From positions 1-57,776 of IMG/VR virus record IMGVR_UViG_3300045988_022519: a DNA stretch of 57,776 nt. One strand, 5' to 3'. Positions 236 to 57,470 of this stretch are shown here, one piece after another; positions within the stretch are counted from its first letter, which is position 1, and every line of letters begins with the position of its first letter. The notes under the pieces were generated by a model. The model saw nothing but the letters and a program-made list of their open reading frames with translations, had not been told where the DNA came from and made no database searches. The DNA is from a virus. Both the position numbers and the translations under genes were made by a program.

Positions 236-237
236 TT

Positions 238-265: not shown

Positions 266-267
266 GG

Positions 268-304: not shown

Positions 305-313
305 ATTAGTTAA

Positions 314-547: not shown

Positions 548-567
548 GATAACTCCTTTTAGTTCCT

Positions 568-595
568 TTCATTAAAGGCTATGATTTTATCGCGA
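568..595 (-). promoter_or_regulatory. Conserved 28-nt promoter-like motif
   Basis: Minus strand TTCGCGATAAAATCATAGCCTTTAATGAA, upstream of the 314-547 RBS. Confidence 0.6.
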
Positions 596-600
596 ACGAA

Positions 601-637
601 AAAAATAAAGAGCTCATGATTTTGTCACGAGCTCTTT
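601..637 (-). terminator. Hairpin terminator
   Basis: Minus strand AAAGAGCUCGUG-loop-CAUGAGCUCUUU (about 12 bp) followed by AUUUUUUU. Confidence 0.75.
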
Positions 638-652
638 ATTTGGTTAAAATGA

Positions 653-1024
653 TTACTTCATTTCAAGTCTCATTTCTACTTTATGACCAAAGCCATCAAG
701 CATCACTACGTTGAGATCTTCGATCTCGAATTTGGCTGTTCCACCATATATAGCCATTGCTTTGTTGTATTGGTCAATAATCTTATTCCAATGTTCAGTG
801 ATAAATCGTTTATATTCTTCATTATTCATATAATCAATAATATTTGGGTGATCTTTATCGAATTCTGAATTCCAAGAATCGATTTGTTCATTGAAACGAT
901 CGGCCATCCAATTATAACCAATTACGTAAGCATGGGCCACTAGGTCCCAACCGATTCGATTTTGCGGTATAATCTCTCCGGTTTTGATGTCAGTGATGAC
1001 AATGTTTGCATAAATGTCGTTCAT
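653..1024 (-). CDS. Hypothetical protein (123 aa)
   Basis: ORF with AAAAGGAG RBS, flanked by promoter motif 1049-1076 and terminator 601-637. Confidence 0.65.
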   Translation of the reverse strand: MNDIYANIVITDIKTGEIIPQNRIGWDLVAHAYVIGYNWMADRFNEQIDSWNSEFDKDHPNIIDYMNNEEYKRFITEHWNKIIDQYNKAMAIYGGTAKFEIEDLNVVMLDGFGHKVEMRLEMK

Positions 1025-1048
1025 GATAACTCCTTTTAAAGTTTTCCT

Positions 1049-1076
1049 TTCATTATATGCGATGTTTCGATCGCGA
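1049..1076 (-). promoter_or_regulatory. Conserved 28-nt promoter-like motif
   Basis: Minus strand TCGCGATCGAAACATCGCATATAATGAA. Confidence 0.6.
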
Positions 1077-10982: not shown

Positions 10983-10994
10983 CAATTCTCCTTA

Positions 10995-25624: not shown

Positions 25625-26152
25625 TTATAGATTGAAACCGTGATTTCTCAGAAAAGCTTTGCCGATCGTCGCACCAATCTTGACTTCAGCTTGGGCCATA
25701 CGACCCGCATTTTGAACAAATGCCTTAGTTTCTTTCGGATTTTTGATAGCATATCCAATAGCGGCTGAAGCTGCTGTAGCCGCTGCAAATCCGACAGCTG
25801 CAGTTGCCTCTCTGGTAATTGTACGTCCGACCCGTCCAGCGCCTTGACGAAAACCTTTTGTTTTATCGGTAACAGTTCGCTGACGTTGCGCAGACCTTCG
25901 AGCCTTACTCAGATCCTGTTTGGCATACGCCTTTTCATATTCGGCTTTATACGTCGGATCCTTAGACTTTTGCTTTACAATGGCATTGATATTTCGTCTT
26001 CGGACACCAGCACCCTCACCATAATACATTTTGGCACGTGCTGATTCTTTCGCATCTCTTCGGGCTTCTCGTCGAACACCCCATTTCATGCCTTTGACGC
26101 CGAAATGCTCAAGGTAATCCGGATAGTAATAATCATTAATATCTTTCGTCAT
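25625..26152 (-). CDS. HFGVKGMKWGVR-leader family protein 1 (175 aa)
   Basis: N-terminus DYLEHFGVKGMKWGVRREARR, basic region, then Ala/Gly-rich hydrophobic segment ATAAVGFAAATAASAAIGYAI. Confidence 0.7.
   Translation of the reverse strand: MTKDINDYYYPDYLEHFGVKGMKWGVRREARRDAKESARAKMYYGEGAGVRRRNINAIVKQKSKDPTYKAEYEKAYAKQDLSKARRSAQRQRTVTDKTKGFRQGAGRVGRTITREATAAVGFAAATAASAAIGYAIKNPKETKAFVQNAGRMAQAEVKIGATIGKAFLRNHGFNL
26073..26110. repeat. 38-nt repeat encoding the leader motif (copy 1 of 6)
   Basis: cgaacaccccatttcatgcctttgacgccgaaatgctc. Confidence 0.9.
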
Positions 26153-26158
26153 TAGAAC

Positions 26159-26575
26159 CTACTTATAATTATTACGGATTCTACTGGCAACACTAACTGC
26201 ACCATATGCTGCAAGCAAGATTGCAGTATTCCTTACTGCATCACATTTAGCTTTCGCAGTAGCTTCGGAAACAGACATGTCATTATCAACTACATACTTA
26301 GCCGCCCTCTTTCGAGTGGCATCGTCGAACATGACTTTTTCATAAAATGACGAATTCTTATTAATACCTTTATATGTATCCTTTATTGCATTCTTACGTT
26401 CTCGTTTAGCACTTTTATATGCACTTTTGGCCGAGTTCAATTGATCTTTGCCTAAACCAGCCTTACGAGCTTTCTTGTATTCAGATTTTGCATTGAGAAC
26501 TTTTTGTTTTCGAACACCCCATTTCATGCCTTTGACGCCGAAATGCTCGAGATAATCGTCTTCGTTAATGATCAC
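26159..26575 (-). CDS. HFGVKGMKWGVR-leader family protein 2 (138 aa)
   Basis: MIINEDDYLEHFGVKGMKWGVRKQKV...; hydrophobic AILLAAYGAVSVAS near the C-terminus. Confidence 0.7.
   Translation of the reverse strand: MIINEDDYLEHFGVKGMKWGVRKQKVLNAKSEYKKARKAGLGKDQLNSAKSAYKSAKRERKNAIKDTYKGINKNSSFYEKVMFDDATRKRAAKYVVDNDMSVSEATAKAKCDAVRNTAILLAAYGAVSVASRIRNNYK
26511..26548. repeat. 38-nt leader-motif repeat (copy 2)
   Basis: cgaacaccccatttcatgcctttgacgccgaaatgctc (identical to copy 1). Confidence 0.9.
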
Positions 26576-26577
26576 TT

Positions 26578-26970
26578 TTATCTCCTTAAATTGTTTAATA
26601 GTGTTGGACCATACTGTTTTAGCAAAGATCCGCCTTTTGCAACACCATAAGCAATAACGGCACCTGCAGCCATATCGGCGATCTTTTGAACCGAAGTCTG
26701 TTCGAAACGGTCAACAAATTTCTTACCAATACCTTTGTAACTTCTATTGTTTTTATAAGTGTTCTCAAGTTGCAAACGATTGTTTGCTTCCTGAAGTTCA
26801 CGATTAGACATTTCATAAGGTTTTTTCTTCATGATGTCTCGAGAACGAGTGTAATCTTCACTTGCTACTCGTTTCGTTTTTCTGGATCTAGACGATCCAG
26901 AACTCTTCTTATCATGTCGAACGCCCCACTTCATGCCTTTGACGCCGAAGTGGTATAATTCGTCAGCCAT
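26578..26970 (-). CDS. HFGVKGMKWGVR-leader family protein 3 (130 aa)
   Basis: MADELYHFGVKGMKWGVRHDKK...; hydrophobic IADMAAGAVIAYGVAKGG. Confidence 0.7.
   Translation of the reverse strand: MADELYHFGVKGMKWGVRHDKKSSGSSRSRKTKRVASEDYTRSRDIMKKKPYEMSNRELQEANNRLQLENTYKNNRSYKGIGKKFVDRFEQTSVQKIADMAAGAVIAYGVAKGGSLLKQYGPTLLNNLRR
26918..26955. repeat. 38-nt leader-motif repeat (copy 3)
   Basis: cgaacgccccacttcatgcctttgacgccgaagtggta. Confidence 0.9.
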
Positions 26971-27310
26971 CGAATCCTCCTTCTGCCTGAACGTTCAAAC
27001 GCCATTCAAGCTCAGAGATGTTATTCTTGATGCTTTCAGTGACGAATGAATTGCTTGGTGGATCGAAAAGAAGACGGACTTTGGATTGAATATATGGCTT
27101 CAATGCAGCTATGATGCATTGATTATCGCTATAATCAGACCATGTGGTTTCAGATCCATTAATCAAAAAACCATTTTTAGGTCCTATTCCAAGTTGCCAA
27201 AGATTATAAAATGCACCATTTATATGATTGGTGATTTCTTCATCAAAAGAATCATCTTCAGGTTCGACACCAAGCATCTTTTTAATAGTGTTAAGAATAC
27301 TTGATTCCAT
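26963..27310 (-). CDS. Head-tail connector protein (gp6-like / Phage_connect_1)
   Basis: 115 aa; ILNTIKKMLGVEPEDDSFDEEITNHINGAF...KVRLLFDPPSNSF...ELEWRL is typical of the gp6-like connector family. Confidence 0.55.
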   Translation of the reverse strand: MESSILNTIKKMLGVEPEDDSFDEEITNHINGAFYNLWQLGIGPKNGFLINGSETTWSDYSDNQCIIAALKPYIQSKVRLLFDPPSNSFVTESIKNNISELEWRLNVQAEGGFDG

Positions 27311-27319
27311 TTTGACCTT

Positions 27320-27739
27320 TCATTTGGAGATCGGAGTCCAAAGACATGTATCTCCAGGATGACGTTCAATCGGTAATTTGAGAATCGATTGATCACCATA
27401 ATGTATAGCATTATGTGTAAGAATAGAACATGAGATCAGATAATTTGGATCCAAGATGGTTATGTCAGAATTCTCCAATGATTCAGGAGATAGAGGACAC
27501 ATATGATGAACCATTATTCGTCCCGGTATCGGGATATCCGAACATCCAAGATCAAACCCACCATCACGTTCTATTACATAATCGCGAATCCGTTTCCATT
27601 CACGAGAACGATAGAATTTTTGATTCATGTATCTTTCAGATCCAAAAGTAGGTTCACCCACTCGTCCATGAAGCATTAGATAATTGAATCGTTCATCAAA
27701 TGTACTCATCTGTTTTAGATCAGAGTATGTTCTAATCAT
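27320..27739 (-). CDS. HNH endonuclease (terminase-associated type)
   Basis: FYRSREWKRIRDYVIERDGGFDLGC...IMVHHMCPL...LDPNYLISCSILTHNAIH. Confidence 0.8.
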   Translation of the reverse strand: MIRTYSDLKQMSTFDERFNYLMLHGRVGEPTFGSERYMNQKFYRSREWKRIRDYVIERDGGFDLGCSDIPIPGRIMVHHMCPLSPESLENSDITILDPNYLISCSILTHNAIHYGDQSILKLPIERHPGDTCLWTPISK

Positions 27740-27933
27740 GCGAATGGATAGTATACGTTCTTTCTAGCAGTACTCTTGTAACGCTTCTTGATTTCAGATA
27801 CAGTAGCCATCTTCTGAATATCCTGTTGTGTCTGTAGCCACTGACGCATGGACTTATTCGAGTATTTCTTACGGGCGTGTCGAACACCCCATTTCATTCC
27901 TTTGACGCCGAAATGATATAGTTCGTCAGACAT
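27736..27933 (-). CDS. HFGVKGMKWGVR-leader family protein 4 (65 aa, leader plus short basic tail)
   Basis: MSDELYHFGVKGMKWGVRHARKKYSNKS... Confidence 0.6.
   Translation of the reverse strand: MSDELYHFGVKGMKWGVRHARKKYSNKSMRQWLQTQQDIQKMATVSEIKKRYKSTARKNVYYPFA
27881..27918. repeat. 38-nt leader-motif repeat (copy 4)
   Basis: cgaacaccccatttcattcctttgacgccgaaatgata. Confidence 0.9.
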
Positions 27934-27937
27934 CGAA

Positions 27938-29158
27938 TTACCTACTTTCTCTTATCTTTAAAATTTCATTATTGGATAGTTTGGTATTCGGATGTTGTTT
28001 ACGATACTTAGTTACAAATTTAGTTTCGATTGAATTCTCGGCTATTTTTATAGTACCCATAGATGCAACGACTGCCGCTCCTTGTGGTGCAAAGGAATTT
28101 ACTAAAGTATGAGCAGCGATTTTTCCGGTTTCCTTGCCATACAAACCATTAATATAATCGTTCCCAAGTTTAGTAAATTTGTCAACCTTGATCTTGTCAG
28201 TATCAAATACGATCAACGGATTCTTTGCAAAATATCCAGAATTCTCTTTATCATTAACATCGCGAATGGCTCCATATCCGGCGTTTTTCAGTGCAGAATA
28301 GAATTTCTCATTAAGTTTCTGCTGATCCTTATCATGATTAACCAACAAAGTGTTAAAGGCTTTATAAGTATTATCGCCTATTTTTCCAGAATCAAGTTCT
28401 TTCTTTGCCTTACCCCAAAGTCTACCTTGTTTACCTATCGATCCTTCCATAGCTTTAGCAAGAATATCAACTTCACTCTTGAATTTACTGAATGATTCCT
28501 TATCATTATCAAGCATGTTCTTTAGTACTTTACGAGCCGACTCAGGAGAAGCAATCTTAATATCTCCAGCGGCCTTCATGGCTTTACGATACACATCGGA
28601 TCCATCCAGTCCAAGCTGTTTTCCATAAAGACCCTCGTATCTTTTCTGGTCATGCTTATTTACGAATCCATAAAATGCTCGATTCGCTGGCTCTGAACCA
28701 TCTTTGGTTATTCGTCCGATCCAGTTTCCGTTTTTGAGAATATGATCAGTTACTTTATCATAATGTTTATATGCGGCATAAGCAACCGCAGAACTTACTG
28801 CAATTCCTCCAGCGACTTTGAGAATTGTTTCTGTTTTTGCTCTATTATACGCTTTGATTTCGGATTCGTCTTTGCTAAAACCCTGATCAATGTATTTCTT
28901 TTCAAGAGCCAGCTGACGTTTTGACTTTTTATTCTGACTTTCTAGTTTCAATCGGGTCTTAGCATCTTCAAATTCACGTCGTGAATACTCAGCCTTAGCA
29001 ACATTTGATCTTGTAGAGTACCACTTTGCAATCCTCTGATCATATCGCATCTGTTCTCTCTTTTTACCGAGAGATGTCAAGGATCCATCCTCGTTCTGAT
29101 ACTTTCGAACGCCCCACTTCATACCTTTGACGCCGAAATGATAAAGTTCATCAGACAT
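27938..29158 (-). CDS. HFGVKGMKWGVR-leader family protein 5 (406 aa)
   Basis: MSDELYHFGVKGMKWGVRKYQNEDGSLTSLGKKR...; TM-like ILKVAGGIAVSSAVAYAAY; large C-terminal domain of unknown function. ATG 29158 has AAGGAG 6 nt upstream; the ORF track starts at 29194. Confidence 0.7.
   Translation of the reverse strand: MSDELYHFGVKGMKWGVRKYQNEDGSLTSLGKKREQMRYDQRIAKWYSTRSNVAKAEYSRREFEDAKTRLKLESQNKKSKRQLALEKKYIDQGFSKDESEIKAYNRAKTETILKVAGGIAVSSAVAYAAYKHYDKVTDHILKNGNWIGRITKDGSEPANRAFYGFVNKHDQKRYEGLYGKQLGLDGSDVYRKAMKAAGDIKIASPESARKVLKNMLDNDKESFSKFKSEVDILAKAMEGSIGKQGRLWGKAKKELDSGKIGDNTYKAFNTLLVNHDKDQQKLNEKFYSALKNAGYGAIRDVNDKENSGYFAKNPLIVFDTDKIKVDKFTKLGNDYINGLYGKETGKIAAHTLVNSFAPQGAAVVASMGTIKIAENSIETKFVTKYRKQHPNTKLSNNEILKIRESR
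29106..29143. repeat. 38-nt leader-motif repeat (copy 5)
   Basis: cgaacgccccacttcatacctttgacgccgaaatgata. Confidence 0.9.
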
Positions 29159-29171
29159 TGGATGCTCCTTA

Positions 29172-29630
29172 TTATACAATTGTCGTATCGACAATTATTT
29201 TGTTTCCAATTGCTTTCAATGCTTCAGATGCTGGAGATGCCCAACTATACCCTTTGCCATAACGAGCTTTTAAATAATTCATATAAATCGGACTATGGGC
29301 GTATTTGTTTACTGCCTTATTTAAACCATAATTTAGTAAAATCCTACCCTGTGGGGATGCCATTATTGCAATACCACTGGCAGCTAGTCTCACTACACGT
29401 TGACGATTTTGTTCATGCTTAGCTGCTTGCACGTAGGTCTTTCCTTTATTCATGGAACGGTTAATTCGTTTGACTCCACGATCGCCATATTTAAAAGAAT
29501 CATTACGTCGATTATAACTCGTATAGTTCTTATTACGTGGTTCTTTTTGTTTTCGAACGCCCCACTTCATGCCTTTGACGCCGAAGTGTTCAAGGTAATC
29601 GTCTTCATTAATAATCACTGTTATCCACAA
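29172..29630 (-). CDS. HFGVKGMKWGVR-leader family protein 6 (about 148-152 aa)
   Basis: ...IINEDDYLEHFGVKGMKWGVRKQKE...; hydrophobic VVRLAASGIAIMASP. Start ambiguous (TTG 29630 or GTG 29618). Confidence 0.65.
   Translation of the reverse strand: MWITVIINEDDYLEHFGVKGMKWGVRKQKEPRNKNYTSYNRRNDSFKYGDRGVKRINRSMNKGKTYVQAAKHEQNRQRVVRLAASGIAIMASPQGRILLNYGLNKAVNKYAHSPIYMNYLKARYGKGYSWASPASEALKAIGNKIIVDTTIV
29554..29591. repeat. 38-nt leader-motif repeat (copy 6)
   Basis: cgaacgccccacttcatgcctttgacgccgaagtgttc. Confidence 0.9.
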
Positions 29631-32611: not shown

Positions 32612-32890
32612 TTATTTTTGAATATTTTCTGGATTTGTTTTCATATCTTTAGATATTCGAATGTAAATACCTAAAGGATCATGAGCTATGATGCGATTCA
32701 TTGCTTGATTGTACTCATACTCTTGTTCTTCATCTGTCATCTCAATGGATGATGTGATGAATCGAGCAATGTAAGCACATGTATGATAGCCCATACGTTC
32801 ATCGTATGCATACCAACCATCATAGTCAATCCATGGATTGAAAGGATTGTCAATAGTAGTAAGCATGTATTCTTTATCTGCCATCATCAA
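32612..32890 (-). CDS. Hypothetical protein (92 aa)
   Basis: ORF TTIDNPFNPWIDYDGWYAYDERMGYHTCAYIARF...; no family named. Confidence 0.6.
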   Translation of the reverse strand: MMMADKEYMLTTIDNPFNPWIDYDGWYAYDERMGYHTCAYIARFITSSIEMTDEEQEYEYNQAMNRIIAHDPLGIYIRISKDMKTNPENIQK

Positions 32891-32911: not shown

Positions 32912-35704
32912 TTAGTCTTTGTCATCAGAAGTTCCAGCCTTCTTAGGTTCAAGGTTCCTATAGAGAGTGGATGTAGAGATGCCAAGACGCTCTGCTACCT
33001 GTGATTGTGTATAGCCACGTTTGAGTAAGGTTTCAGCCATGCTAAGCATAGATGCTGACATACCAGTCTCAGTATGTGGCATAGCCAATTGCTTCAACTT
33101 GTCAGGATCTGAGTTAGCCAGTATTCTGCTAAGTGTATTAGCGCTGACTGCATGATTCTGTATGGCTTCCCATTCCTTATCAGTGATGTCAATCTGTTGC
33201 TTTTTGGCACCGGTTCTCTGACGGGCCTCTGTAAGACACTGTCCTTTAAGACGTTTCTTATCAGAGTTATCATATTCTGGATGCTCATCCAACTTGATTT
33301 TATATAGTTGGTTTGCAACAAACTGGGCTCGGCGTTCCAAAGGAGAGTTCTTTTCTGCAATGTTAAGTTTAGCATTGAGAGATTGAACTTCAGTCGCATA
33401 CTTCTGCTTGGCTGCTGGATCATACTTGAAAGAACCGGCAGACAGATATGATTTGCGGGTTTGATTTGCCAGGGCCTTCATTTTATTAGCATAGTCTGCA
33501 TAAATATTTTCCATCTGGGTACCAGTTGAAAGAGAATATGCATCCTTTGCATAAGCCATCTTAGTGGTCTTTGTAAGATAAGGAATCGTCTTTTCGGAAA
33601 TGATGTTCCCTTCTTTGTCATACTTTTTCTTCACATAAGAACGATTTGTATTCTTATAGCGAAGTTCACCAGTATTTGGATCGATGGGACCACCTTCAGA
33701 AGCTTTCCAAAGACGACGTTCGGGAACATCGATCTCAGACTTAGCTCTAGAAATAAGAGTCGAAGCACCACCTGGTTTTCCACCACCAGGTTTGGGCTGA
33801 TACTTTGCCTTAAGAGCATCAATTCCATTATCGATTTCAGACTGACGCCAATTAAGCTTATGCTTCTCGGCATCAATAACCACCATCGAATGACGAACTG
33901 CCCTTTCGATCTCAGACCATTCCGCACCTTTAAGGGTCATGTCTGTAATAAGGTTTGAGACCTTACCCATCTCAGTTCCCTTTTGCTTTTTGGTCATTAC
34001 TTTCATGCCTTCATAGGCAGGATATGCCTCTTTAGGATCAAAGTTTTTAAGACCAGCAAGCGGAGCTCGAGTCTTAATCTCATGTCTTGGGTTCGGAATA
34101 ACCAAAACATTATCACCATCGAAATCTGCACCAGAAAGAATTTCAGCAACATGCGAATTAATACCTACTGCATCACTTGGATGAGTTCCCATAACTCGCT
34201 TTGCTTCTGCATTTTTGTTGTTGACTTTCAATTCTGGAATTTCGAATTTACCTCCATGTGGGAAACGAATAAGAACTACATCTTCACCATCACGAAGATG
34301 AGGGGCGTAGATCTCATTGTCCTTCAAAGAGGTGATCGGTAAAATAACTTTAGTCGCCTGACGTGGCATAGCTGCTGCCTTTAGATCTACAGCCGCTGTG
34401 TCGCATTCATCTGCAAACTCTTTAAGCATCTTGGCTTTTACAATCGGATTTGTCAGACTCATAATATCATCATACTGACTCTTACGAACCTGGTAATCAA
34501 TATCCAATTGTTTCTTGGCAAGACTCTTGTCCTGTTTTGAAAGCATCTGAGATGGAAGCACAGACTTCCATTCCGACCAAACACCTTCTCCATTGACAAG
34601 ATTTATAGCGGACTGCTTCTGGTTTCCGTCCTTATCGATATAATGATAGTTCTTGAAGGTTGCACCGAATGGAATATCCCAATCGATATCACCTTGGCTA
34701 CCATCAGGATTCTTGACTTTCTTCAAAGGCTTCAAAACATCATCAATTTCATTTGTCTTTCCTGTTTTAGGATCGACTCGATGCTTGTTCGTGTTGAATA
34801 TGATGTCAACGCCTTTAGGGAAGTCCTTTTCTTGACCGTAGACAGCCATACCTTTCAAATATGACTTATCTCCAACATTAATTCGGACCTGTGCGTATAG
34901 CATATTTCCCATACGAAGATCAGCAGCCGAAGGACGAATCTCCATAACGCCATCTTTTTCGATTCCGCCTTCTTCATTGTAACGAATTTTCACTCGTTTA
35001 GGATCGACGGAAATCGGCCTTTGAAATTTCGAACCTTGTCCCTCAGGATGTTTTTCATCAAGAGGATTTGCGATTGATTTAAATAAGGATGGATTATCCC
35101 AAATATCCTTCACAGTCGTTCCTGGAGCCAATAGAACCTTAATATCAGTGGTATTATCTGGTCCACTCGCTCCAAGTTGCTTAACATAAAGATGACCAAC
35201 ATGATAACCTTCATTTTTAAGCATCTCAGCTGCTACTTTTAGCTTATCGGCTGAACTATTCAAATATAGCTCAGTCGACTTGCCAATATCGACACATCCT
35301 TTTTCACCAATGGTATCTTTGAGATTTGTGGCGATTGTCTGAGCGACGTCAGTGCGAACTTTCAAAGAAGGATCCAGCCAATTACGAACCGTGGATTCAT
35401 TGGTATTCATTCGCTGAGCGATGGCCACATTAGAATATCCCTTTTTCTTCAGGCGGTATGCCATTGAAATATTCGCTTGACGTTCCTCTGCGAGCGCAAT
35501 GGACTTTTGGGCCCTGTATTGGGTTGTAGTCATTCCGAGAGCTCGTGCAATTTCAGTCTGTGTAAGACCTTTACTCGCAAGTTCTCGAGAACGACCTAAA
35601 AATCCAGGCTCATGCTGATATGGATCTTCACCAGATCCCCATTTGTATCGACCGGAACGACGTTTGACACCTTCGTGCATCAAATATGATTCTTCAAGCA
35701 TCAT
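32912..35704 (-). CDS. Putative single-chain two-barrel (YonO / RdRP-like) RNA polymerase with N- and C-terminal HTH modules
   Basis: beta-like barrel segment YLKGMAVYGQEKDFPKGVDIIFNTN (34784-34849). beta-prime-like catalytic segment DVVLIRFPHGG...ILSGADFDGDNVLVIPNP (DFDGD at 34112-34126). HTH-like LTQTEIARALGMTTTQYR, YSNVAIAQRMNTNESTVRNW, YTQSQVAERLGISTSTLYRNL. Confidence 0.6.
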   Translation of the reverse strand: MMLEESYLMHEGVKRRSGRYKWGSGEDPYQHEPGFLGRSRELASKGLTQTEIARALGMTTTQYRAQKSIALAEERQANISMAYRLKKKGYSNVAIAQRMNTNESTVRNWLDPSLKVRTDVAQTIATNLKDTIGEKGCVDIGKSTELYLNSSADKLKVAAEMLKNEGYHVGHLYVKQLGASGPDNTTDIKVLLAPGTTVKDIWDNPSLFKSIANPLDEKHPEGQGSKFQRPISVDPKRVKIRYNEEGGIEKDGVMEIRPSAADLRMGNMLYAQVRINVGDKSYLKGMAVYGQEKDFPKGVDIIFNTNKHRVDPKTGKTNEIDDVLKPLKKVKNPDGSQGDIDWDIPFGATFKNYHYIDKDGNQKQSAINLVNGEGVWSEWKSVLPSQMLSKQDKSLAKKQLDIDYQVRKSQYDDIMSLTNPIVKAKMLKEFADECDTAAVDLKAAAMPRQATKVILPITSLKDNEIYAPHLRDGEDVVLIRFPHGGKFEIPELKVNNKNAEAKRVMGTHPSDAVGINSHVAEILSGADFDGDNVLVIPNPRHEIKTRAPLAGLKNFDPKEAYPAYEGMKVMTKKQKGTEMGKVSNLITDMTLKGAEWSEIERAVRHSMVVIDAEKHKLNWRQSEIDNGIDALKAKYQPKPGGGKPGGASTLISRAKSEIDVPERRLWKASEGGPIDPNTGELRYKNTNRSYVKKKYDKEGNIISEKTIPYLTKTTKMAYAKDAYSLSTGTQMENIYADYANKMKALANQTRKSYLSAGSFKYDPAAKQKYATEVQSLNAKLNIAEKNSPLERRAQFVANQLYKIKLDEHPEYDNSDKKRLKGQCLTEARQRTGAKKQQIDITDKEWEAIQNHAVSANTLSRILANSDPDKLKQLAMPHTETGMSASMLSMAETLLKRGYTQSQVAERLGISTSTLYRNLEPKKAGTSDDKD

Positions 35705-36590: not shown

Positions 36591-36651
36591 CTTTCAAAGA
36601 ATATAGAAGCTAGGAAAATGCTCCGAAAAAGAGCATATTGTATGCCTATCT

Positions 36652-36679
36652 TCCATTATGTGCGATGTTATGAATCCGA
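36652..36679 (-). promoter_or_regulatory. Variant copy of the promoter-like motif
   Basis: Minus strand TCGGATTCATAACATCGCACATAATGGA directly after the stop of 36696-37022 and preceded by GTGCACAG; followed by hairpin AUGCUC-CGAAAAA-GAGCAU. Confidence 0.5.
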
Positions 36680-42633: not shown

Positions 42634-42749
42634 GTTTCCATGAATCCAAAAATATAATGAAAGAATTCAGCAATCGGCCCAACGAAAACCTAATTGCGGT
42701 AGGTGTGGAAACGTCCACACGCCTTCGTGTCTTACCTTTTTATTATCCT

Positions 42750-42777
42750 TTCATTATAAGCCATGTTTTTATCGCGA
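42750..42777 (-). promoter_or_regulatory. Conserved 28-nt promoter-like motif
   Basis: Minus strand TCGCGATAAAAACATGGCTTATAATGAA; leader contains hairpin gtgtgga-aacg-tccacac. Confidence 0.6.
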
Positions 42778-51977: not shown

Positions 51978-52077
51978 TGTAAAACCTTTCGGAATAGTTC
52001 ATGAAAAACTCCAAATGAGGAGCCATGACCGAAACAAGATCACAGCTCCTCATATTAAGCGATGAAAATATCGCGAA

Positions 52078-52557
52078 TCACTTCTGGAACGGATTATAAG
52101 CCTTGGAATCCGATTCCTGGATCTGACCAAAGACGGCATCAAGAGTCTTGCTGTGATCCTCGTCCTTCGGCATGATCTTCTCGAGAACCGCTCGGTTTGG
52201 CATAACGGAACGCATAAAGTTCATGATCGCACCTTCAGAAGCAGTGAGCTCGATGAACAGAATATCCCAACCATCGGATTCGAAGAAATATTTCTTTTCA
52301 TCTTCAGTCATTGGGCGGAATTCGGTGAATCCACTATCCTTATGAACCGGGAAGCCAATCGACATGTCGACAAAGCTCTTAAGAATATACATGAGATCTT
52401 CCGTGGAAGAATTCGGAGAGAAATTCTGCATCTTCTTCATAAGATCTTCATTGTTGACGATGTCAAGCAGCTGATTAATCGAGAGACGGAAAATAAGGTC
52501 GTAGGAAACGTTACGACCGTCAAGATCCTGATACTGAATAGTAGTCTTGTATGCCAT
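52078..52557 (-). CDS. Hypothetical protein (159 aa)
   Basis: ORF; no family named. Confidence 0.6.
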   Translation of the reverse strand: MAYKTTIQYQDLDGRNVSYDLIFRLSINQLLDIVNNEDLMKKMQNFSPNSSTEDLMYILKSFVDMSIGFPVHKDSGFTEFRPMTEDEKKYFFESDGWDILFIELTASEGAIMNFMRSVMPNRAVLEKIMPKDEDHSKTLDAVFGQIQESDSKAYNPFQK

Positions 52558-52580
52558 TGTAATTATCCTTTCAATATTTA

Positions 52581-52691
52581 TTAACTATTCTTGCGGAAGA
52601 AACGGAGTACGATCCATACCAACCACAAGCCACCTGTAAGACCAATCATTAAAAGGTCAAACAGAAAATTCATGATACCATAATGTTTCAT
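52581..52691 (-). CDS. Small membrane protein (36 aa)
   Basis: MKHYGIMNFLFDLLMIGLTGGLWLVWIVLRFFRKNS with AAGGAG RBS; below the ORF-track size cut-off. Confidence 0.45.
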   Translation of the reverse strand: MKHYGIMNFLFDLLMIGLTGGLWLVWIVLRFFRKNS

Positions 52692-52703
52692 TATAAGCTC
52701 CTT

Positions 52704-52737
52704 AAAATAAGAGCCCATGTAATGAACATGAGCTCTT
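52704..52737 (-). terminator. Hairpin terminator
   Basis: Minus strand AAGAGCUCAUG-UUCAUUA-CAUGGGCUCUU followed by AUUUU. Confidence 0.7.
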
Positions 52738-52744
52738 AGATTTT

Positions 52745-53008
52745 TCAATCTTCGTTCGATTCTTCCGAGTCGATGGATTCGTTATCTTCAGCAACTTCAG
52801 CTTTTGGAATATCCTTCGACTTCTGTTTGGTCATCTTCTCTTTAACGATATCGGATACACGAACCTTGACAATGGTTTCTGCAATAACACTTACTGCAAG
52901 AGCACCAAGTCCAAGGACCGCGTTTCCGGCATTCGCTCCGAGAGCGATGTCCTCCAGAGTTTTGGTCTTTCCAAGAGCTTTCGCTGCGATAGAAAATACA
53001 TTTGCCAT
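52745..53008 (-). CDS. Small membrane protein with acidic tail (87 aa)
   Basis: NAVLGLGALAVSVIAETIV hydrophobic core; TAAGGAG RBS. Confidence 0.6.
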   Translation of the reverse strand: MANVFSIAAKALGKTKTLEDIALGANAGNAVLGLGALAVSVIAETIVKVRVSDIVKEKMTKQKSKDIPKAEVAEDNESIDSEESNED

Positions 53009-53036
53009 AATAACTCCTTATAATAAAACGTATAGT

Positions 53037-53064
53037 TTCATTATAAGCAATGTTTTTACTGCGA
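53037..53064 (-). promoter_or_regulatory. Conserved 28-nt promoter-like motif
   Basis: Minus strand TCGCAGTAAAAACATTGCTTATAATGAA. Confidence 0.55.
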
Positions 53065-53095
53065 CATCAACTCTGCGAATTCGCTCCAGAAAATA

Positions 53096-53839
53096 TCAGT
53101 ATTTTCGTAGTGTGTCGGGGAAGGGAGGGTTTCGAAAGTTCATTACGATATTCGGATTGCCATTTTCATCGAGACGAGACGAGAACGTGATATCGATCAT
53201 GGTATCATAGTCCCATCCAAGTTCCTCTCCGATCTGAGCCGGAGGTAAACCAATCTCATCGTAGAACTCATTGAGAGAGCACCATCCTTCGGACAGGATC
53301 TTTTTGTTCTTACGATTCTGAGCGGCCTCGATCTTGTTCATGTCTGATGCGAACTTTCGATCAGTTAGACTGTCATAGCAAATATAAGGTCCAGTTCCGA
53401 AGACCGTTGGATTCTTCCCATCGATCTTTTTGATCTGTTCGTCAGCGACTTTGTCGTCGATTTCCTTTGCCTTCTTTGGACCAACAGTTTCCTCGACCTT
53501 TTCTCGATAGGTGCGTGCTGCCTCCTGGGCAAGAGCGAGTGCTCCAGCATATGCGGCAGTTCGTCCAGAAGATATACGATTCGATGCCACAAGGCACATA
53601 ATCGTTGCGCTGGAGATCAGGATCGTCGGAATATAGATCGGAACGACCAGCTTGGTCTTTTCCTTCGGGGTAAGCACCCTATCGGTTTCATACGTCTTCG
53701 CTCGAAGAACCTTATCTGCCTCTAGCGAATTCTTACCAGATACGATCGCCACTCCGACTACTCCGACACACCCCAGAGCCGTAAGAATATTTGAACCGTT
53801 CTCAGAAATGAACTTTTTGATCGAATGCGGGATTTCCAT
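53096..53839 (-). CDS. Two-TM membrane protein, paralogue of 49995-50912
   Basis: See 49995-50912; AAGGAG RBS. Confidence 0.65.
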   Translation of the reverse strand: MEIPHSIKKFISENGSNILTALGCVGVVGVAIVSGKNSLEADKVLRAKTYETDRVLTPKEKTKLVVPIYIPTILISSATIMCLVASNRISSGRTAAYAGALALAQEAARTYREKVEETVGPKKAKEIDDKVADEQIKKIDGKNPTVFGTGPYICYDSLTDRKFASDMNKIEAAQNRKNKKILSEGWCSLNEFYDEIGLPPAQIGEELGWDYDTMIDITFSSRLDENGNPNIVMNFRNPPFPDTLRKY

Positions 53840-53854
53840 GATTACTCCTTAGAC

Positions 53855-53888
53855 AAAATATAGGTCCCATGTTTCCATGAGACCTATA
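53855..53888 (-). terminator. 13-bp hairpin with GAAA tetraloop plus U-run
   Basis: Minus strand UAUAGGUCUCAUG-GAAA-CAUGGGACCUAUA followed by UUUUG; homologous element at 56283-56315. Confidence 0.65.
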
Positions 53889-53904
53889 GGTTTTGACTGA
53901 TTAT

Positions 53905-54093
53905 TCAGTCCTCGGTAATTTCGTTAACGTTGGTATCGTTTACATCTGCGGAATCGTCATCATCAGATACCAATTCAGCAGAGGCCTGAATCAATGCGAT
54001 AGTTGCAATGCAACCAAGCACGATTCCGCCACAAATGAAATCGGTCTTATGATCTTTGACGAATTTCTTAGCAGATTCAAACTTTTCCTTCAT
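53905..54093 (-). CDS. Small membrane protein with acidic tail (62 aa)
   Basis: Start reset to ATG 54093 (AAAGGAGTTATC-ATG): MKEKFESAKKFVKDHKTDFICGGIVLGCIATIALI... Confidence 0.55.
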   Translation of the reverse strand: MKEKFESAKKFVKDHKTDFICGGIVLGCIATIALIQASAELVSDDDDSADVNDTNVNEITED

Positions 54094-54124
54094 GATAACT
54101 CCTTTGTGAGAGGTTTGAATATCT

Positions 54125-54152
54125 TTCATTATGTGCCATGTTTTTATTGCGA
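54125..54152 (-). promoter_or_regulatory. Conserved 28-nt promoter-like motif
   Basis: Minus strand TCGCAATAAAAACATGGCACATAATGAA. Confidence 0.55.
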
Positions 54153-54154
54153 TT

Positions 54155-54658
54155 TCAAACAGCATCCTGTGTCTTGTAAGGCAAGAGAATATCATGTGTT
54201 CGGAATGTTGTCGAATCACTTACGGGAACATCAGTTTGAAGATACGATTTTCCATTTCTGGAAATATAATGGAAACATTTGTGGTTTCCATTATAGGTAA
54301 ACATGGCGCTGGACGTATTGTGTTCATTCTCGAAGTCTGGATCAAGTACCGATCCTATGCGAATATCATTCGATTCAAGATCATTCATGGCTATCAAACC
54401 TCGCCACATGATTGTCGAACTAACCGAGTTCGTATAATATACGGTTATATTCTTTTCAGTCAATATGATCTCATAAGTACATTCGGATGATCCATCATCG
54501 CAATGGTTATCATGATAGATCTGTGAATATACACCATAAATCGATTGCGCTGGAGCTTCAGATTTTTTTGCTTTGGGAAGAATACATGCAATCCCGAGAA
54601 AAGCGAGTACGAGTATTAATGTTAGAAACTTTTTAATGAATTTATGATTCTTATTCAA
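54155..54658 (-). CDS. Secreted protein / possible lipoprotein (167 aa)
   Basis: Signal-peptide-like MNKNHKFIKKFLTLILVLAFLGIAC with Cys after the hydrophobic core (imperfect lipobox). Confidence 0.55.
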   Translation of the reverse strand: MNKNHKFIKKFLTLILVLAFLGIACILPKAKKSEAPAQSIYGVYSQIYHDNHCDDGSSECTYEIILTEKNITVYYTNSVSSTIMWRGLIAMNDLESNDIRIGSVLDPDFENEHNTSSAMFTYNGNHKCFHYISRNGKSYLQTDVPVSDSTTFRTHDILLPYKTQDAV

Positions 54659-55133
54659 TTGGTGTTCCTTTCACATCAGCTCTGCATGTTTCGAAGCCAT
54701 ATGCATCCTCATATGCGTGGAATTTATACGAGAACGAAACGAGAGCGGCATAAAGATATGGAGCATATAAAGCAATCAAATCTTTATAATTAATCCATAA
54801 AATATGTTTTTCTTTTAATCGATCAAATTCTCGAACAATATCCTCGAATGGCTGACAATAATCGAACATTTCGATCGTTATTAGTCCATCGCGGTAATCG
54901 AAATATGAATTAATCGATGTTCGTAATGTACTCATTAGTTCTGGAAAGCACCGATCAAGAACCCATAGTTTCTGAGGTTCCATCAAATATCCGATTTTGA
55001 TCATGCGGAAATCTTCATTGTTATTTATACAATCTTCGCAGAATTCATCATATATATCCCAATCAGGAACAGCCCTAGGCACAAAAATATAATAGATGAG
55101 TATCCTAAAAATACGCATGATAACTCCTTTCAA
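54651..55133 (-). CDS. Hypothetical protein (160 aa)
   Basis: ORF. Confidence 0.55.
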   Translation of the reverse strand: MKGVIMRIFRILIYYIFVPRAVPDWDIYDEFCEDCINNNEDFRMIKIGYLMEPQKLWVLDRCFPELMSTLRTSINSYFDYRDGLITIEMFDYCQPFEDIVREFDRLKEKHILWINYKDLIALYAPYLYAALVSFSYKFHAYEDAYGFETCRADVKGTPIE

Positions 55134-55136
55134 ACA

Positions 55137-55334
55137 TCATTGATATTTCTGGATTACATCACAACTTCGTGTATAGTCGCCATTGTCAATGCAAACCCAA
55201 TCGATATCTCCCGTTTTGATATGTTCGACTTTATTTACATTATCTTCTTCGCCAAGATTAAAGGCAATCATCGTACCTAATCCCATTAACAACATTCCGG
55301 CAAGAAACCATGACAAACATGCCCAGATTTTCAT
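55137..55334 (-). CDS. Small membrane protein (65 aa)
   Basis: WACLSWFLAGMLLMGLGTMIAF TM. Confidence 0.55.
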   Translation of the reverse strand: MKIWACLSWFLAGMLLMGLGTMIAFNLGEEDNVNKVEHIKTGDIDWVCIDNGDYTRSCDVIQKYQ

Positions 55335-55480
55335 TCTGTTTCTCCTTCTATTATTTGACTTATTGCGACATGCTCTTTCTCATCGAGTTCTTCGAGCATT
55401 CGTGGATCATCCAATCGTATCATTATATCAATATCGCCATACATTGTTTGATGGGCTTTTATGACAGTTCCATTTATCAT
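55331..55480 (-). CDS. Small ORF (49 aa)
   Basis: MINGTVIKAHQTMYGDIDIMIRLDDPRMLEELDEKEHVAISQIIEGETE; ATGA overlaps at both ends fill an otherwise empty 140-nt gap. Confidence 0.45.
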   Translation of the reverse strand: MINGTVIKAHQTMYGDIDIMIRLDDPRMLEELDEKEHVAISQIIEGETE

Positions 55481-56064
55481 TTCTTAATTCCATTCATTTG
55501 TATGGATCGAATTATACCATTTGCGATCATTGACGGGTTTTTATTGGAATTATAAATACTTCTATCTATGACACATTTGTAAATATCCTTGTTTATATCA
55601 TGGTTTCTAAGTTCTGCAAAATCCTCTCGATCTGATTCGATTCGTCTATCGACTTCTTTCGGATCATCTCCTCGTGCAAGAGCACGCATCTGGCAAATCT
55701 CCTCGGGTGCATCTAAGAATACACCGAATACCGATTCTCCGATATCAGGAGCCAGATATTCAAACGATGATGGATCCAGGATCGTAACCGTATCGCGATC
55801 CTGCTGGAATTCCTTCATCGAGATTCCGTATCGCCAGATTCCGAACTTCGTAGAATATACACGAATCGCCCGAACATCATCCCAAATCACAGCGGATTTG
55901 AATCCTTCATTATCCGTGAAAAAATATTCGTCATCGGGTTCGTTAGGTCTTTTTGGTCGTGTTGTTATAGCTCTGGTTTTGACAAAACCATTTTTCGCCA
56001 ATTCATTGGCGATTGTTGTCTTCCCCGATCCCATTGGACCTATCAGGAAAATATCAGTTTTCAT
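55477..56064 (-). CDS. Guanylate kinase-like / dNMP kinase
   Basis: P-loop LIGPMGSGKTT and TTRPKRPNEPDDEYFF (guanylate kinase signature TTR.PR..E..G.dY.F). Confidence 0.7.
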   Translation of the reverse strand: MKTDIFLIGPMGSGKTTIANELAKNGFVKTRAITTRPKRPNEPDDEYFFTDNEGFKSAVIWDDVRAIRVYSTKFGIWRYGISMKEFQQDRDTVTILDPSSFEYLAPDIGESVFGVFLDAPEEICQMRALARGDDPKEVDRRIESDREDFAELRNHDINKDIYKCVIDRSIYNSNKNPSMIANGIIRSIQMNGIKK

Positions 56065-56266
56065 GATCTACTCCTTTGTATTTTCCGGTCAATGTATAAC
56101 TGAAATCTTTATCCGAACGATAGTTCGTGACTTTGAAGTCGCAGACCATTCCATTATCTAAATATACGATCACATTATTATATGCTCTAAGATGATAATG
56201 GGAACGTTGCTTCCAAAATCCTGGAAATATCTCTTCAAAACAACGGATGACCCTATAAGTCTGCAT
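56054..56266 (-). CDS. Hypothetical protein (70 aa)
   Basis: Start reset to ATG 56266 because the ORF-track ATG (56305) lies inside the hairpin at 56286-56315. Confidence 0.5.
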   Translation of the reverse strand: MQTYRVIRCFEEIFPGFWKQRSHYHLRAYNNVIVYLDNGMVCDFKVTNYRSDKDFSYTLTGKYKGVDHEN

Positions 56267-56282
56267 TTTTGATTCCTTAGAC

Positions 56283-56315
56283 AAATATAGATCCCATGTT
56301 TCCATGAGATCTATA
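56283..56315 (-). terminator. 13-bp hairpin with GAAA tetraloop (homologue of 53855-53888)
   Basis: Minus strand UAUAGAUCUCAUG-GAAA-CAUGGGAUCUAUA; differs from the other copy by one compensated base pair (G-C to A-U). Confidence 0.6.
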
Positions 56316-56341
56316 GATTAAACGATTGTCAGTAAATATGA

Positions 56342-56644
56342 TCAGGCTTTAGGTTTCGGAATGAATCCTAGAACTTTAGATGTAATCACATGTGATTCCT
56401 CAAATCCAAGCATGACGATGATTCCGAGCAAAGTGGTTCCAGCTGCAATCGACTTTACAATCGTGTCGTGCCTATCCGAGTTGTAATCTCGTTTGGCTTC
56501 GACAAGAGTCTTAATGTCACTTACCAACTTTCCACGTGCTTCGGAATCATCGTCAAGCGTATACAATTGAGAAATCAGCAACGTGATGTCATCATCAAAA
56601 TTCTGATTGATATCATTGCGATTGTCCTTATTGTTCTTGAACAT
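56342..56644 (-). CDS. C-terminally membrane-anchored hypothetical protein (100 aa)
   Basis: Start reset to ATG 56644 (GAAAGGAG RBS) because the ORF-track ATG is the ATG inside the TATAATGAAA promoter box. Confidence 0.55.
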   Translation of the reverse strand: MFKNNKDNRNDINQNFDDDITLLISQLYTLDDDSEARGKLVSDIKTLVEAKRDYNSDRHDTIVKSIAAGTTLLGIIVMLGFEESHVITSKVLGFIPKPKA

Positions 56645-56663
56645 ATTGCTCCTTTCAAATGAT

Positions 56664-56691
56664 TTCATTATATGCCATGAATATATCGCGA
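56664..56691 (-). promoter_or_regulatory. Conserved 28-nt promoter-like motif
   Basis: Minus strand TCGCGATATATTCATGGCATATAATGAA. Confidence 0.6.
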
Positions 56692-56692
56692 C

Positions 56693-56736
56693 AAAAATAA
56701 AAGCCCATGTAATTATTATAAACTACATGGGCTTTT
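56693..56736 (-). terminator. Hairpin terminator
   Basis: Minus strand AAAAGCCCAUGUA-loop-UACAUGGGCUUUU followed by AUUUUUGU. Confidence 0.75.
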
Positions 56737-56737
56737 A

Positions 56738-57073
56738 TTAGTTCTTATTATTCTTCAGCTCAGTGAAGGTGTCAACAATACGTTGAAATTCTTCATAGTC
56801 GAGAGGATTGAGAACGTCGTTCTCCTTGATCCATTTGATGGCTTCATCGATATGATCAGCATCCGGTACCGTGATCGCGATTTTTGCGGGATCGAGTACG
56901 TATGTCAGAGAATCTGCACAATCTGTAATATTGTTATCAAGATTCCTGATTTCACGAATCGCGAATGCAAAATATGCGATCCAAATACCAGCCGCTGCTG
57001 TTGCGGTGATTCCAAGAATATGGTCCTGGCAGAACTTGCTGACATTCCTCTTTACTTCATCGAACTTCTTCAT
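56738..57073 (-). CDS. Membrane protein (111 aa)
   Basis: TM ILGITATAAAGIWIAYFAFAI; AAAGGAGTTAATC-ATG. Confidence 0.6.
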   Translation of the reverse strand: MKKFDEVKRNVSKFCQDHILGITATAAAGIWIAYFAFAIREIRNLDNNITDCADSLTYVLDPAKIAITVPDADHIDEAIKWIKENDVLNPLDYEEFQRIVDTFTELKNNKN

Positions 57074-57105
57074 GATTAACTCCTTTGTAAGAGGTTTCGA
57101 ATAGT

Positions 57106-57133
57106 TTCATTATATGCAATGATTTTAATGCGA
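57106..57133 (-). promoter_or_regulatory. Conserved 28-nt promoter-like motif
   Basis: Minus strand TCGCATTAAAATCATTGCATATAATGAA; promoter plus leader 57071-57135 is near-identical to 57408-57472. Confidence 0.6.
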
Positions 57134-57161
57134 AAATAAAGAGGATTAAAATCGATTTTAA

Positions 57162-57410
57162 TTACCAACGTAAAATAGTGGAATTGGTCACATGACTTTC
57201 AATAGCCTGCTTCTCTTTTATTGAGATGTGGCGAACTGTGATAGAATTGCAACCATCACAATGTGTTATAGTAATTGAACATTTAGGTGCGATCAGCTTT
57301 ACATCCTTGATGAAACGTTCTATGGCATCTTCGTCGAAGCTAAACAGTACAATTTCTTCGGTATGCAGGTTATTCATGAAAATGGAAATTAGCTGAACAA
57401 TGTCGAACAT
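57162..57410 (-). CDS. Hypothetical protein (82 aa)
   Basis: ORF with AAAGGAGTTAATC-ATG. Confidence 0.6.
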   Translation of the reverse strand: MFDIVQLISIFMNNLHTEEIVLFSFDEDAIERFIKDVKLIAPKCSITITHCDGCNSITVRHISIKEKQAIESHVTNSTILRW

Positions 57411-57442
57411 GATTAACTCCTTTATAAGAGGTTTCGAATAGT

Positions 57443-57470
57443 TTCATTATATGCAATGATTTTAATGTGA
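57443..57470 (-). promoter_or_regulatory. Conserved 28-nt promoter-like motif
   Basis: Minus strand TCACATTAAAATCATTGCATATAATGAA. Confidence 0.55.

Follow-up and report, generated by a model that had tools for sequence, protein, structure and literature searches.

The window analysed here is a 57,776-nucleotide (nt) stretch of viral DNA, positions 1 to 57,776 of the IMG/VR record IMGVR_UViG_3300045988_022519. On its minus strand lies a 930-amino-acid open reading frame (ORF), which a first-pass annotation made from the letters alone had read as a single-chain "YonO / QDE-1-like" RNA polymerase with built-in helix-turn-helix (HTH) modules. The ORF, at 32912-35704, and every peptide quoted in that annotation were found in the window. 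The gene and the parts of its product are as follows.

32912..35704, minus strand: single-chain two-barrel RNA polymerase gene, 930 amino acids (aa), ATG start, phrog_4291 / phage 1706 ORF75 family
35609..35704, minus strand: N-terminal leader, aa 1-32, SYLMHEGVKRRSGRYKWGSG, predicted local distance difference test score (pLDDT) <50, proposed capsid-targeting signal
35309..35602, minus strand: two N-terminal HTH modules with connecting helices, aa 35-132, Pfam Sigma70_r4_2, HTH_28 and HTH_23
34589..34993, minus strand: beta-like barrel region, aa 238-372, beta-strand-rich in the model, with D251, R274, K284 and K307; holds the first-barrel motif discussed below
34085..34357, minus strand: beta-prime-like barrel, aa 450-540, six strands at 450-537, with R480-x-P482 (nt 34259-34267) and D527-F-D-G-D531 (nt 34112-34126)
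32951..33055, minus strand: C-terminal HTH module, aa 884-918, Pfam HTH_23, HTH_3, HTH_38 and Sigma70_r4

In the second barrel, DVVLIRFPHGG...ELKV occupies aa 475-494 and AEILSGADFDGDNVLVIPNP aa 520-539, with 25 residues separating them, and the DFDGD loop falls at aa 527-531, exactly at the nucleotides claimed for it. The first-barrel motif KSYLKGMAVYG...NTNKH is likewise present (aa 280-308), but the span given for it (nt 34784-34849) was slightly too narrow, the true one being 34781-34867. Three HTH-like segments had been proposed at aa 47-64, 90-109, and 898-918. They are backed by Pfam matches at aa 44-110 and 882-919 (HTH_23, 4.8e-14; Sigma70_r4_2, 1.1e-7; HTH_3; and others) and by three-helix bundles in the structural model, where helices span aa 35-44, 49-55, 60-87, 92-98, and 103-110 at the N-terminus and aa 884-895, 900-907, and 911-918 at the C-terminus.

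Conservation was assessed in an alignment of 121 homologs with 52-60% identity. Invariant in 121/121 sequences were R480, P482, D527, F528, D529, G530, and D531 as well as K284, G285, R274, D251, and K307. The spacing from R-x-P to DFDGD is about 45 residues, as in QDE-1. Conservation of the polymerase motifs is far beyond chance. The metal loop and R-x-P have counterparts in Rpb1 (D479/481/483, R446, P448) and in QDE-1 (D1007/1009/1011, R962, P964). The first barrel of these enzymes contributes an aspartate and two basic residues (D837, K979, and K987 in Rpb2; D709, R738, and K743 in QDE-1). D251, R274, and K284 (also K307) are candidates for the corresponding active-site residues; they occur in the right order and would be equivalent to those of QDE-1.

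An AlphaFold2 model built from the 121 homologs (pLDDT 81.1, predicted template modelling score 0.72) showed a disordered segment at aa 1-32 (pLDDT <50), helical HTH modules at both ends, and beta-rich regions at aa 238-372 and 450-540. When the model was searched with Foldseek against the PDB, QDE-1 provided the top 11 matches (E 3e-10 to 2e-7, probability 1.0), followed by gp62, the non-virion RNA polymerase of Thermus phage P74-26 (E 1.4e-6), and RDR2 (5e-5 to 1e-3). These three proteins filled ranks 1-17, 16 of them at E<=1e-3. After rank 17 came beta-prime/Rpb1/A-prime chains of bacterial, archaeal, and eukaryotic polymerases at marginal E values of 0.03-0.16. In the viral library BFVD, P23-45 gp64 and segments of crAss-like phage proteins were retrieved, the latter among the weak matches. 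Every significant Foldseek match was a two-barrel polymerase, so that the barrel pair was found and the DFDGD loop did not model into an unrelated fold. Because of these matches and the invariant R-x-P and DFDGD motifs, the central claim is upheld, namely a single-chain RNA polymerase with two barrels and with HTH modules on either side. On the evidence of the predicted model, the protein is a QDE-1-like two-barrel RNA polymerase with an intact R-x-P and DFDGD centre and HTH modules at both ends. At the level of sequence families, only HTH families were above threshold when the whole protein was searched against Pfam, and NCBIfam gave nothing relevant.

QDE-1 of Neurospora and RDR2 of plants (PF05183) are the best structural matches, with the same barrel order and with R-x-P and D-x-DGD in the second barrel. 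They differ from the window protein in sequence (about 12% identity), lack HTH modules and leader, and are eukaryotic RNA-silencing enzymes that copy RNA. That the nearest solved structures copy RNA, and that a weak Pfam match of the core is to the RNA-dependent RNA polymerase (RdRP) family PF05183, would fit a true RNA-dependent enzyme acting on phage or host transcripts, for example in connection with double-stranded RNA or counter-defence. We consider this highly improbable. The name carried by the family in RefSeq and PHROGs is inherited from the Pfam family, and QDE-1 itself copies DNA too (PMC9508822). All characterised single-chain two-barrel enzymes of phages (YonO, crAss gp66, P23-45 gp96, and gp64) are DNA-dependent, and the HTH modules, together with a conserved double-stranded-DNA motif described below, point to DNA templates.

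The QDE-1 half of the original comparison holds, with QDE-1 as the closest structural match, but membership of the YonO family does not. SPbeta YonO is, like the window protein, a single-chain two-barrel polymerase of a Gram-positive siphovirus. YonO was taken from SPbeta and a 28-member YonO family alignment was built. Membership was rejected on hhalign probabilities of 1.9% against YonO and 0.6% (E 0.1) against the 28-member profile. In the sole YonO alignment produced, RxPH, DxDGD, and GxxSNxIT were collinear, and only catalytic motifs lined up. Members of the YonO family are about 840 aa long, have no HTH Pfam domains, and share the invariant cysteines C799, C802, C816, and C819, whereas in the window protein three HTH modules are present and a C-terminal cysteine cluster is absent. 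YonO is a non-virion enzyme that transcribes late genes (PMC5467207). Judged from these comparisons, the window protein appears to work like YonO yet lies outside the YonO family.

The non-virion enzymes gp64/gp62 of the Thermus phages P23-45/P74-26 are also single-chain two-barrel polymerases of siphoviruses, and gp62 is the best structural match from a phage. A second polymerase of P23-45, gp96, is fused to the tape measure protein, occurs in virions, and has its own early promoter motif, which sets a precedent for a virion-fused two-barrel polymerase (PMC10770324). The Thermus phage polymerases have no sequence similarity to the window protein and no HTH modules. Only one polymerase gene was found in the window genome, compared with gp64 and gp96 in P23-45. 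No mention of the hosts of the window family was found in the supplementary material examined for the P23-45 paper's survey of viral two-barrel polymerases (PMC10770324).

The window protein belongs to a large and already recognised family. Against PHROGs it matched phrog_4291 ("RNA-dependent RNA polymerase") with E=0 and 1152 bits, aa 2-919 aligning to profile positions 6-906 of 909, and it is 38% identical to ORF75 of Lactococcus phage 1706 (E 1e-176). With tblastn, 250 phage records were found to encode full-length homologs with about 50% identity; phages of Arthrobacter contribute 95, of Gordonia 55, of Streptomyces 54, and of Lactococcus 13, with others making up the rest. Their annotations range from hypothetical or structural protein to HTH DNA-binding and RNA-dependent RNA polymerase. 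When the HTH-free core was run against 1.84 billion representative proteins, it yielded 1,484 clusters at 50% identity, 739 of them at E<=1e-30, and an N-terminal extension of 130-170 aa was present in nearly all 1,484. The closest homolog is a metagenomic protein (P0001) with 99% identity; all others are at most 60% identical. No close DNA relative of the window was found by megablast against 50,697 phage records.

The same set of Pfam HTH domains was found in the homologs, and the neighbourhood is syntenic in six relatives. Full-length homologs with 38-60% identity occur in actinophage clusters BI, AM, AU, DJ, CC, and EL and in Faecalibacterium phage FP_oengus. They share with the window protein the leader, two N-terminal HTH modules, the two-barrel core, and the C-terminal HTH module, and their genes are likewise accompanied by a VRR-Nuc endonuclease, a RecB-like exonuclease, and a small downstream ORF, followed by packaging genes. 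The HTH-flanked architecture, which the first-pass annotation did not know from YonO or QDE-1, had been described before: in 2010, Ruprich-Robert and Thuriaux listed five distantly related "YonO-like" families and assigned the phage 1706 protein to one of them (PMC2919709), the layout, described in 2019-21, is given by Koert et al. (bioRxiv 10.1101/842583), and the family is labelled in PHROGs and RefSeq. Koert et al. reported HTH domains at both ends, the DxDGD loop, and an HHpred match of the family alignment to PF05183 at 95.7%, and regarded this architecture as a signature of a phage supercluster across Actinobacteria and Firmicutes (bioRxiv 10.1101/842583). No experimental work on the phrog_4291 family was found in the literature searched. 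The identification as a polymerase is thus correct, but family and architecture are already published, and the window protein is a new member. New here are two leads, one on packaging and one on the promoter, both of them testable.

The packaging lead begins with the neighbours of the gene, all on the minus strand.

36285-36590, minus strand: VRR-Nuc-type endonuclease, phrog_93, upstream partner of the polymerase gene
35719-36285, minus strand: RecB/Cas4-like exonuclease, phrog_3953, upstream partner of the polymerase gene
32612..32890, minus strand: small ORF directly downstream of the polymerase gene, phrog_4303, with a syntenic small ORF in all relatives
29649-31391, minus strand: large terminase
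25625..29630, minus strand: six leader-bearing ORFs (29172-29630, 27938-29194, 27736-27933, 26578-26970, 26159-26575, and 25625-26152)
24329-25612, minus strand: portal

The order endonuclease-exonuclease-polymerase is kept in phages of Streptomyces, Gordonia, Arthrobacter, and Rhodococcus. All six ORFs between the large terminase and the portal start with a near-identical leader, L-x-HFGVKGMKWGVR, as had been claimed. The window differs in this number from the relatives of the 1706 family examined, which have one or two such ORFs in the head module. The leader alone matched 13 PHROGs, one of them labelled virion structural protein, and genes for leader proteins lie on either side of the terminase in the relatives that infect Bifidobacterium and Streptomyces. 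A literature search for the motif "GMKWG" returned nothing relevant.

The proposed kinship of this leader with the N-terminus of the polymerase was borne out in part. The PHROG leader families gave no profile match to the polymerase N-terminus, whereas an unfiltered local hidden Markov model (HMM) of the leader gave 7-21 bits over "(acidic)-L-x-H-Y/F-G-I/V-K". The likeness is plain when the N-terminus of the ReqiPoco6 polymerase, INEDDYLAHYGILRRSGRYPWGSG (INEDDYLAHYG...), is set beside the window leader IINEDDYLEHFGVKGMKWGVRK. Among the 121 homologs, the leader residues H10, G12, S17, G18, R19, Y20, G23, and G25 are at least 90% conserved. These comparisons partly support the view that the polymerase N-terminus is a divergent copy of the head-module leader.

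One of the six ORFs, 65 aa long (27736-27933), has a perfect leader (MSDELYHFGVKGMKWGVRH...), and an HNH endonuclease gene (phrog_4321) comes immediately after it (27320-27933 in all, minus strand). A homing endonuclease seems to have inserted into a leader-protein gene here and truncated it.

Association with virions is indicated indirectly by two further sets of observations. In the GenBank record of phage 1706 (EU081845), ORF75 and the leader-bearing ORF7 are both annotated "structural protein"; the same label on the ReqiPoco6 protein was copied from 1706. The EU081845 labels are said to come from virion mass spectrometry by Garneau and colleagues in 2008. The second set concerns two outliers of about 1,800 aa among the core clusters. 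One protein (P0290) has a Pfam Phage_portal domain (aa 76-389, 102.7 bits) joined by a 600-aa linker to the polymerase core, and lacks leader and HTH modules. It occupies the portal position, with a terminase-like gene on one side and prohead protease and capsid genes on the other. In a second sample, the polymerase (P0285, core 80% identical to P0290) is preceded by a separate gene that overlaps its start in GTGATG and whose terminal part aligns with that of the P0290 portal domain (E 6e-10). Both variants lie on high-G+C metagenomic phage contigs, the fused gene on L009 (1866-7235) and the adjacent pair on L010 (2-5658), within a terminase-portal-protease-capsid module; in both, the core is without leader and without any HTH module. 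Such a fusion/fission pair is classical evidence of a functional link, here apparently between portal and polymerase. The fusion partner is the portal in these variants, compared with the tape measure protein in P23-45. The 1706 ORF75 label, the portal fusion and coupling, and the shared leader together suggest that the enzyme is packaged in the virion.

The same variants bear on another explanation, in which the protein is a DNA-binding regulator or an ejection ("pilot") protein whose HTH modules bind the conserved motif and so activate or recruit host RNA polymerase, its core having a secondary or non-transcriptional role such as priming or the synthesis of short RNAs. Members of the family have been deposited by many authors under the name "helix-turn-helix DNA-binding domain protein", HTH families are the only Pfam matches above threshold, and the promoter-like motif treated below retains a host-type -10 hexamer. 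We judge this reading improbable, since the portal-fused versions retain the core and drop the HTH modules, and the alignment shows no variation in DFDGD, in R-x-P, or in the first barrel's basic residues, and the core is conserved over 1,484 clusters. Invariant catalytic residues and a conserved core argue for a selected enzymatic activity.

The promoter lead came from the non-coding sequence. The first and last 99 nt of the window (1-99 and 57678-57776) form an exact direct repeat (repeat analysis, family D13), and the window therefore represents one complete genome of 57,677 bp, either circularly assembled or terminally redundant. Its G+C content is 42% and the minus strand carries every gene. 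Repeat analysis revealed about ten copies of a 30-40-nt element, with the 31-nt motif TCGCGATaAAAaCATnGCnTATAATGAAA on the coding strand. A position weight matrix (PWM) for the motif was trained on three genomes. The motif copies and the terminators of the window are as follows.

52046..57470, minus strand: early region, six motif copies (57470-57440, 57133-57103, 56691-56661, 54152-54122, 53064-53034, and 52076-52046)
61..1076, minus strand: early region continued past the window ends, four motif copies (1076-1046, 595-565, 265-235, and 91-61)
42747..42777, minus strand: motif copy in the replication region, best PWM score, 41.8 bits
37127..37157, minus strand: second weaker motif variant (TCGG...), PWM 19.9 bits
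36649..36679, minus strand: weaker motif variant (TCGG...), TCGGATTCATAACATCGCACATAATGGAAGA, PWM 21.2 bits, directly upstream of the endonuclease-exonuclease-polymerase block
1116->1084, minus strand: intrinsic terminator closing the late unit, 14-bp stem and T-run
603-641, minus strand: second intrinsic terminator, stem and T-run (the stems of the two terminators are 14 bp and 17 bp)

Nine strong copies thus lie in the early region across the window ends, and the others at 52.0, 42.7, 37.1, and 36.7 kb. The motif is usually preceded by a hairpin and T-run, and a Shine-Dalgarno sequence and start codon follow at 12-43 nt; for the six copies at 52046..57470, this distance is 16-43 nt. It contains a perfect TATAAT, with no TTGACA 17 bp upstream; instead, TCGC stands 19 nt before TATAAT, and bases after the hexamer are conserved. 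In the window, PWM hits on the gene strand and the opposite strand numbered 13/0, where shuffles expect 0.6. In two genomes outside the training set, Arthrobacter phage Mudcat and Gordonia phage Schwartz33, they numbered 8/0 and 9/0 (shuffles 0.2-0.35). Canonical sigma-70-type sites (TTGACA-N17-TATAAT) were at chance level throughout the genome. A host-type promoter was considered for the motif; the missing -35 hexamer and the chance level of canonical sites speak against it, but the host may still use the motif.

In phages that carry the polymerase and infect Bifidobacterium, Streptomyces, Arthrobacter, or Gordonia, the same motif marks the early regions, with seven copies in the early arm of BitterVaud1 (Bifidobacterium) and six in that of RosaAsantewaa (Streptomyces). 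The parts conserved across hosts are the upstream TCGC...ACA and the downstream GAAA/GAGACC. Lactococcus phage 1706, with its 38% identical polymerase, has ten copies of a diverged motif, CACATGTTTTACATACACTATAGTAGAAAGA (L002 24030-42931). Within the latter, the core ...CACTATAG... resembles the core of T7-type promoters, which may be coincidence. A query of the phage database with the window-type motif gave little information, the motif being short and rich in AT. The actinophage form occurred at 727 places in 153 of the 50,697 phage records, and none of these was a mycobacteriophage. The motif was confined to host groups in which as many records carry it as carry the polymerase: the two counts agree for Gordonia (55/55) and Rhodococcus (4/4), and for the strains G. 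terrae 3612 (15/15), G. rubripertincta B-16540 (36/36), and S. griseus ATCC 10137 (18/18).

Two motif copies are followed by stretches that stand apart from the coding pattern. After the copy at 265-235, about 130 nt contain no ORF (100-235, minus strand) and have a stable predicted fold (-37.2 kcal/mol, z = -2.4). This stretch includes a tRNA-like T-arm, CCGGGTTCGAACCCCGG, at 165-149 and may be a small structured RNA, but ARAGORN detected no tRNA and no Rfam family was matched. For more than 100 nt after the best-scoring copy at 42777-42747, there is no start codon (42634-42746, minus strand); the stretch includes short hairpins and may be a non-coding transcript or a long leader.

The terminator claimed at 1079-1115 was confirmed at 1116->1084, and no strong terminator was detected inside the late region, as had been stated. 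Since neither further motif copies nor a strong terminator were found from 36.6 kb down to that terminator, the polymerase gene appears to stand third in a late unit that spans about 35 kb. The variant at 36649..36679 is a candidate promoter of this unit, and Mudcat has an analogous motif site upstream of its own endonuclease-exonuclease-polymerase block. No sigma factor or other RNA polymerase subunit was found with PHROGs among 30 early and middle ORFs, in agreement with the earlier reading. The position of the gene beside the late operon had implicitly been read as the mark of a late-operon transcriptase. The conserved promoter copies mainly precede early genes, however, and most likely the position reflects that the polymerase gene is itself late, a gene for a virion component.

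That implicit model is the main rival. In it, the enzyme is a non-virion polymerase like YonO: host RNA polymerase would read the TATAAT motif for the early genes, and the phage enzyme would transcribe the late operon. YonO, the best-studied relative in a bacterial virus, is non-virion and serves late genes (PMC5467207), as the close structural match P23-45 gp64 / P74 gp62 is non-virion; the motif contains a perfect -10 hexamer, and the gene heads a terminator-free unit of about 35 kb. We nevertheless regard this alternative as rather unlikely. Near the late unit, motif-like sites are limited to weaker variants of the early motif, so that one recognition system seems to serve both, and no separate late-promoter family was found by repeat analysis of the window. 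Conservation of TCGC...ACA and GAAA/GAGACC across hosts of two phyla, tracking the polymerase, is unexpected for sigma-A. Furthermore, this model leaves the shared leader, the portal fusion, and the annotation of 1706 ORF75 unexplained.

We consider it probable, though by no means assured, that the protein is a virion-delivered single-chain DNA-dependent RNA polymerase of the 1706 ORF75 family that transcribes the early genes. It would be expressed late, as the third gene of the unit that begins at the weak promoter variants (36.6-37.2 kb), takes in the genes for packaging, head, tail, and lysis, and ends at the terminator (1116-1084). The protein would then be loaded into the procapsid, its leader, common to the six small proteins, serving as a targeting or portal-docking signal, and be ejected into the cell along with the DNA. 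There, it would initiate without a sigma factor at the approximately ten copies of TCGCGATaAAAaCATnGCnTATAATGAAA; this conserved, phage-specific motif is present before early genes, and its upstream TCGC...ACA part would be read by the HTH modules. The same logic is known from N4 gp50 and, in a crAss-like phage, from phi14:2 gp66, which are made late, packaged, and ejected, and carry out early transcription from conserved promoters. Both are very large proteins of podoviruses, and N4 gp50 is T7-like, not two-barrel. Packaging has been demonstrated for the N4 and crAss-like enzymes, whereas for the window polymerase we infer it.

Several observations weigh against this reading. As to the fold, global Foldseek TM-scores are low (0.25-0.31, and 0.43 on the target for gp62), as is expected for a multi-domain comparison at 12% identity. 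Searches of PDB sequences with phmmer and with the 121-sequence profile returned HTH proteins only and no polymerase. The HTH-free core matched Pfam RdRP (PF05183) at 13.3 bits, below the cutoff of 23.8 (E 0.033, aa 518-547); this sub-threshold match sits on the DFDGD loop. With respect to packaging, the label "structural protein" on 1706 ORF75 comes from a GenBank annotation, portal fusion and coupled pair are each known from a single contig, from two samples, and a folded protein of 105 kDa would have to unfold to traverse a siphovirus tail. The portal-linked variants lack the leader and the three HTH modules, so that promoter reading by HTH modules is not universal in the family. Concerning the promoter, the perfect TATAAT means that host sigma-A holoenzyme could use the motif, and its conservation within a related group of phages could partly stem from common descent. 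The motif and polymerase record sets were compared through their host counts and through some 11 names common to both, not one record at a time.

A few other features of the genome were noted. The primase-polymerase (phrog_4210), one gene of about 1,300 aa in relatives, is split here into two ORFs, which cover profile positions 2-949 and 953-1296 and are separated by an inserted thymidylate synthase gene (43036-44145, 44379-45272, and 45534-48395, minus strand). The 1,983-aa tape measure gene (12860-18811, minus strand) contains tandem arrays at 14091-15814, with five 183-nt and three 150-nt units, and the tape measure gene of BitterVaud1 (L001 19339-20825) has the same repeat periods. Downstream of the tail genes, a 1,701-aa ORF (5880-10985, minus strand) with several diverged repeats spaced 177 nt or multiples thereof is probably a repetitive tail fibre or host-binding protein.

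The family is a large one recognised on paper, with its 1,484 clusters and 250 sequenced phages, and many of its members are cultivable SEA-PHAGES isolates. The 31-nt promoter offers a handle for in vitro transcription, 5'-end mapping, and orthogonal expression tools in Gram-positive bacteria. If the favoured reading is true, the enzyme would be the simplest known cellular-type RNA polymerase that locates promoters without a separate sigma factor, and would represent a fourth route of polymerase packaging beside those of N4, crAss-like, and P23-45-type phages. More tentatively, and as something possible rather than probable, the family may constitute a self-contained, virion-delivered transcription system, in which one polypeptide joins the core to sigma-region-4-like HTH modules that would read a double-stranded promoter directly, and a capsid leader, or in some lineages a portal fusion, brings the enzyme into the particle. 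Such a system would free the early genes from host sigma factors and thereby help to explain the spread of the group across Actinobacteria and Firmicutes with one promoter. Speculatively, phage-carried transcription could also explain why the G+C content of the group is far below that of its hosts, and why its host ranges are unusually flexible.

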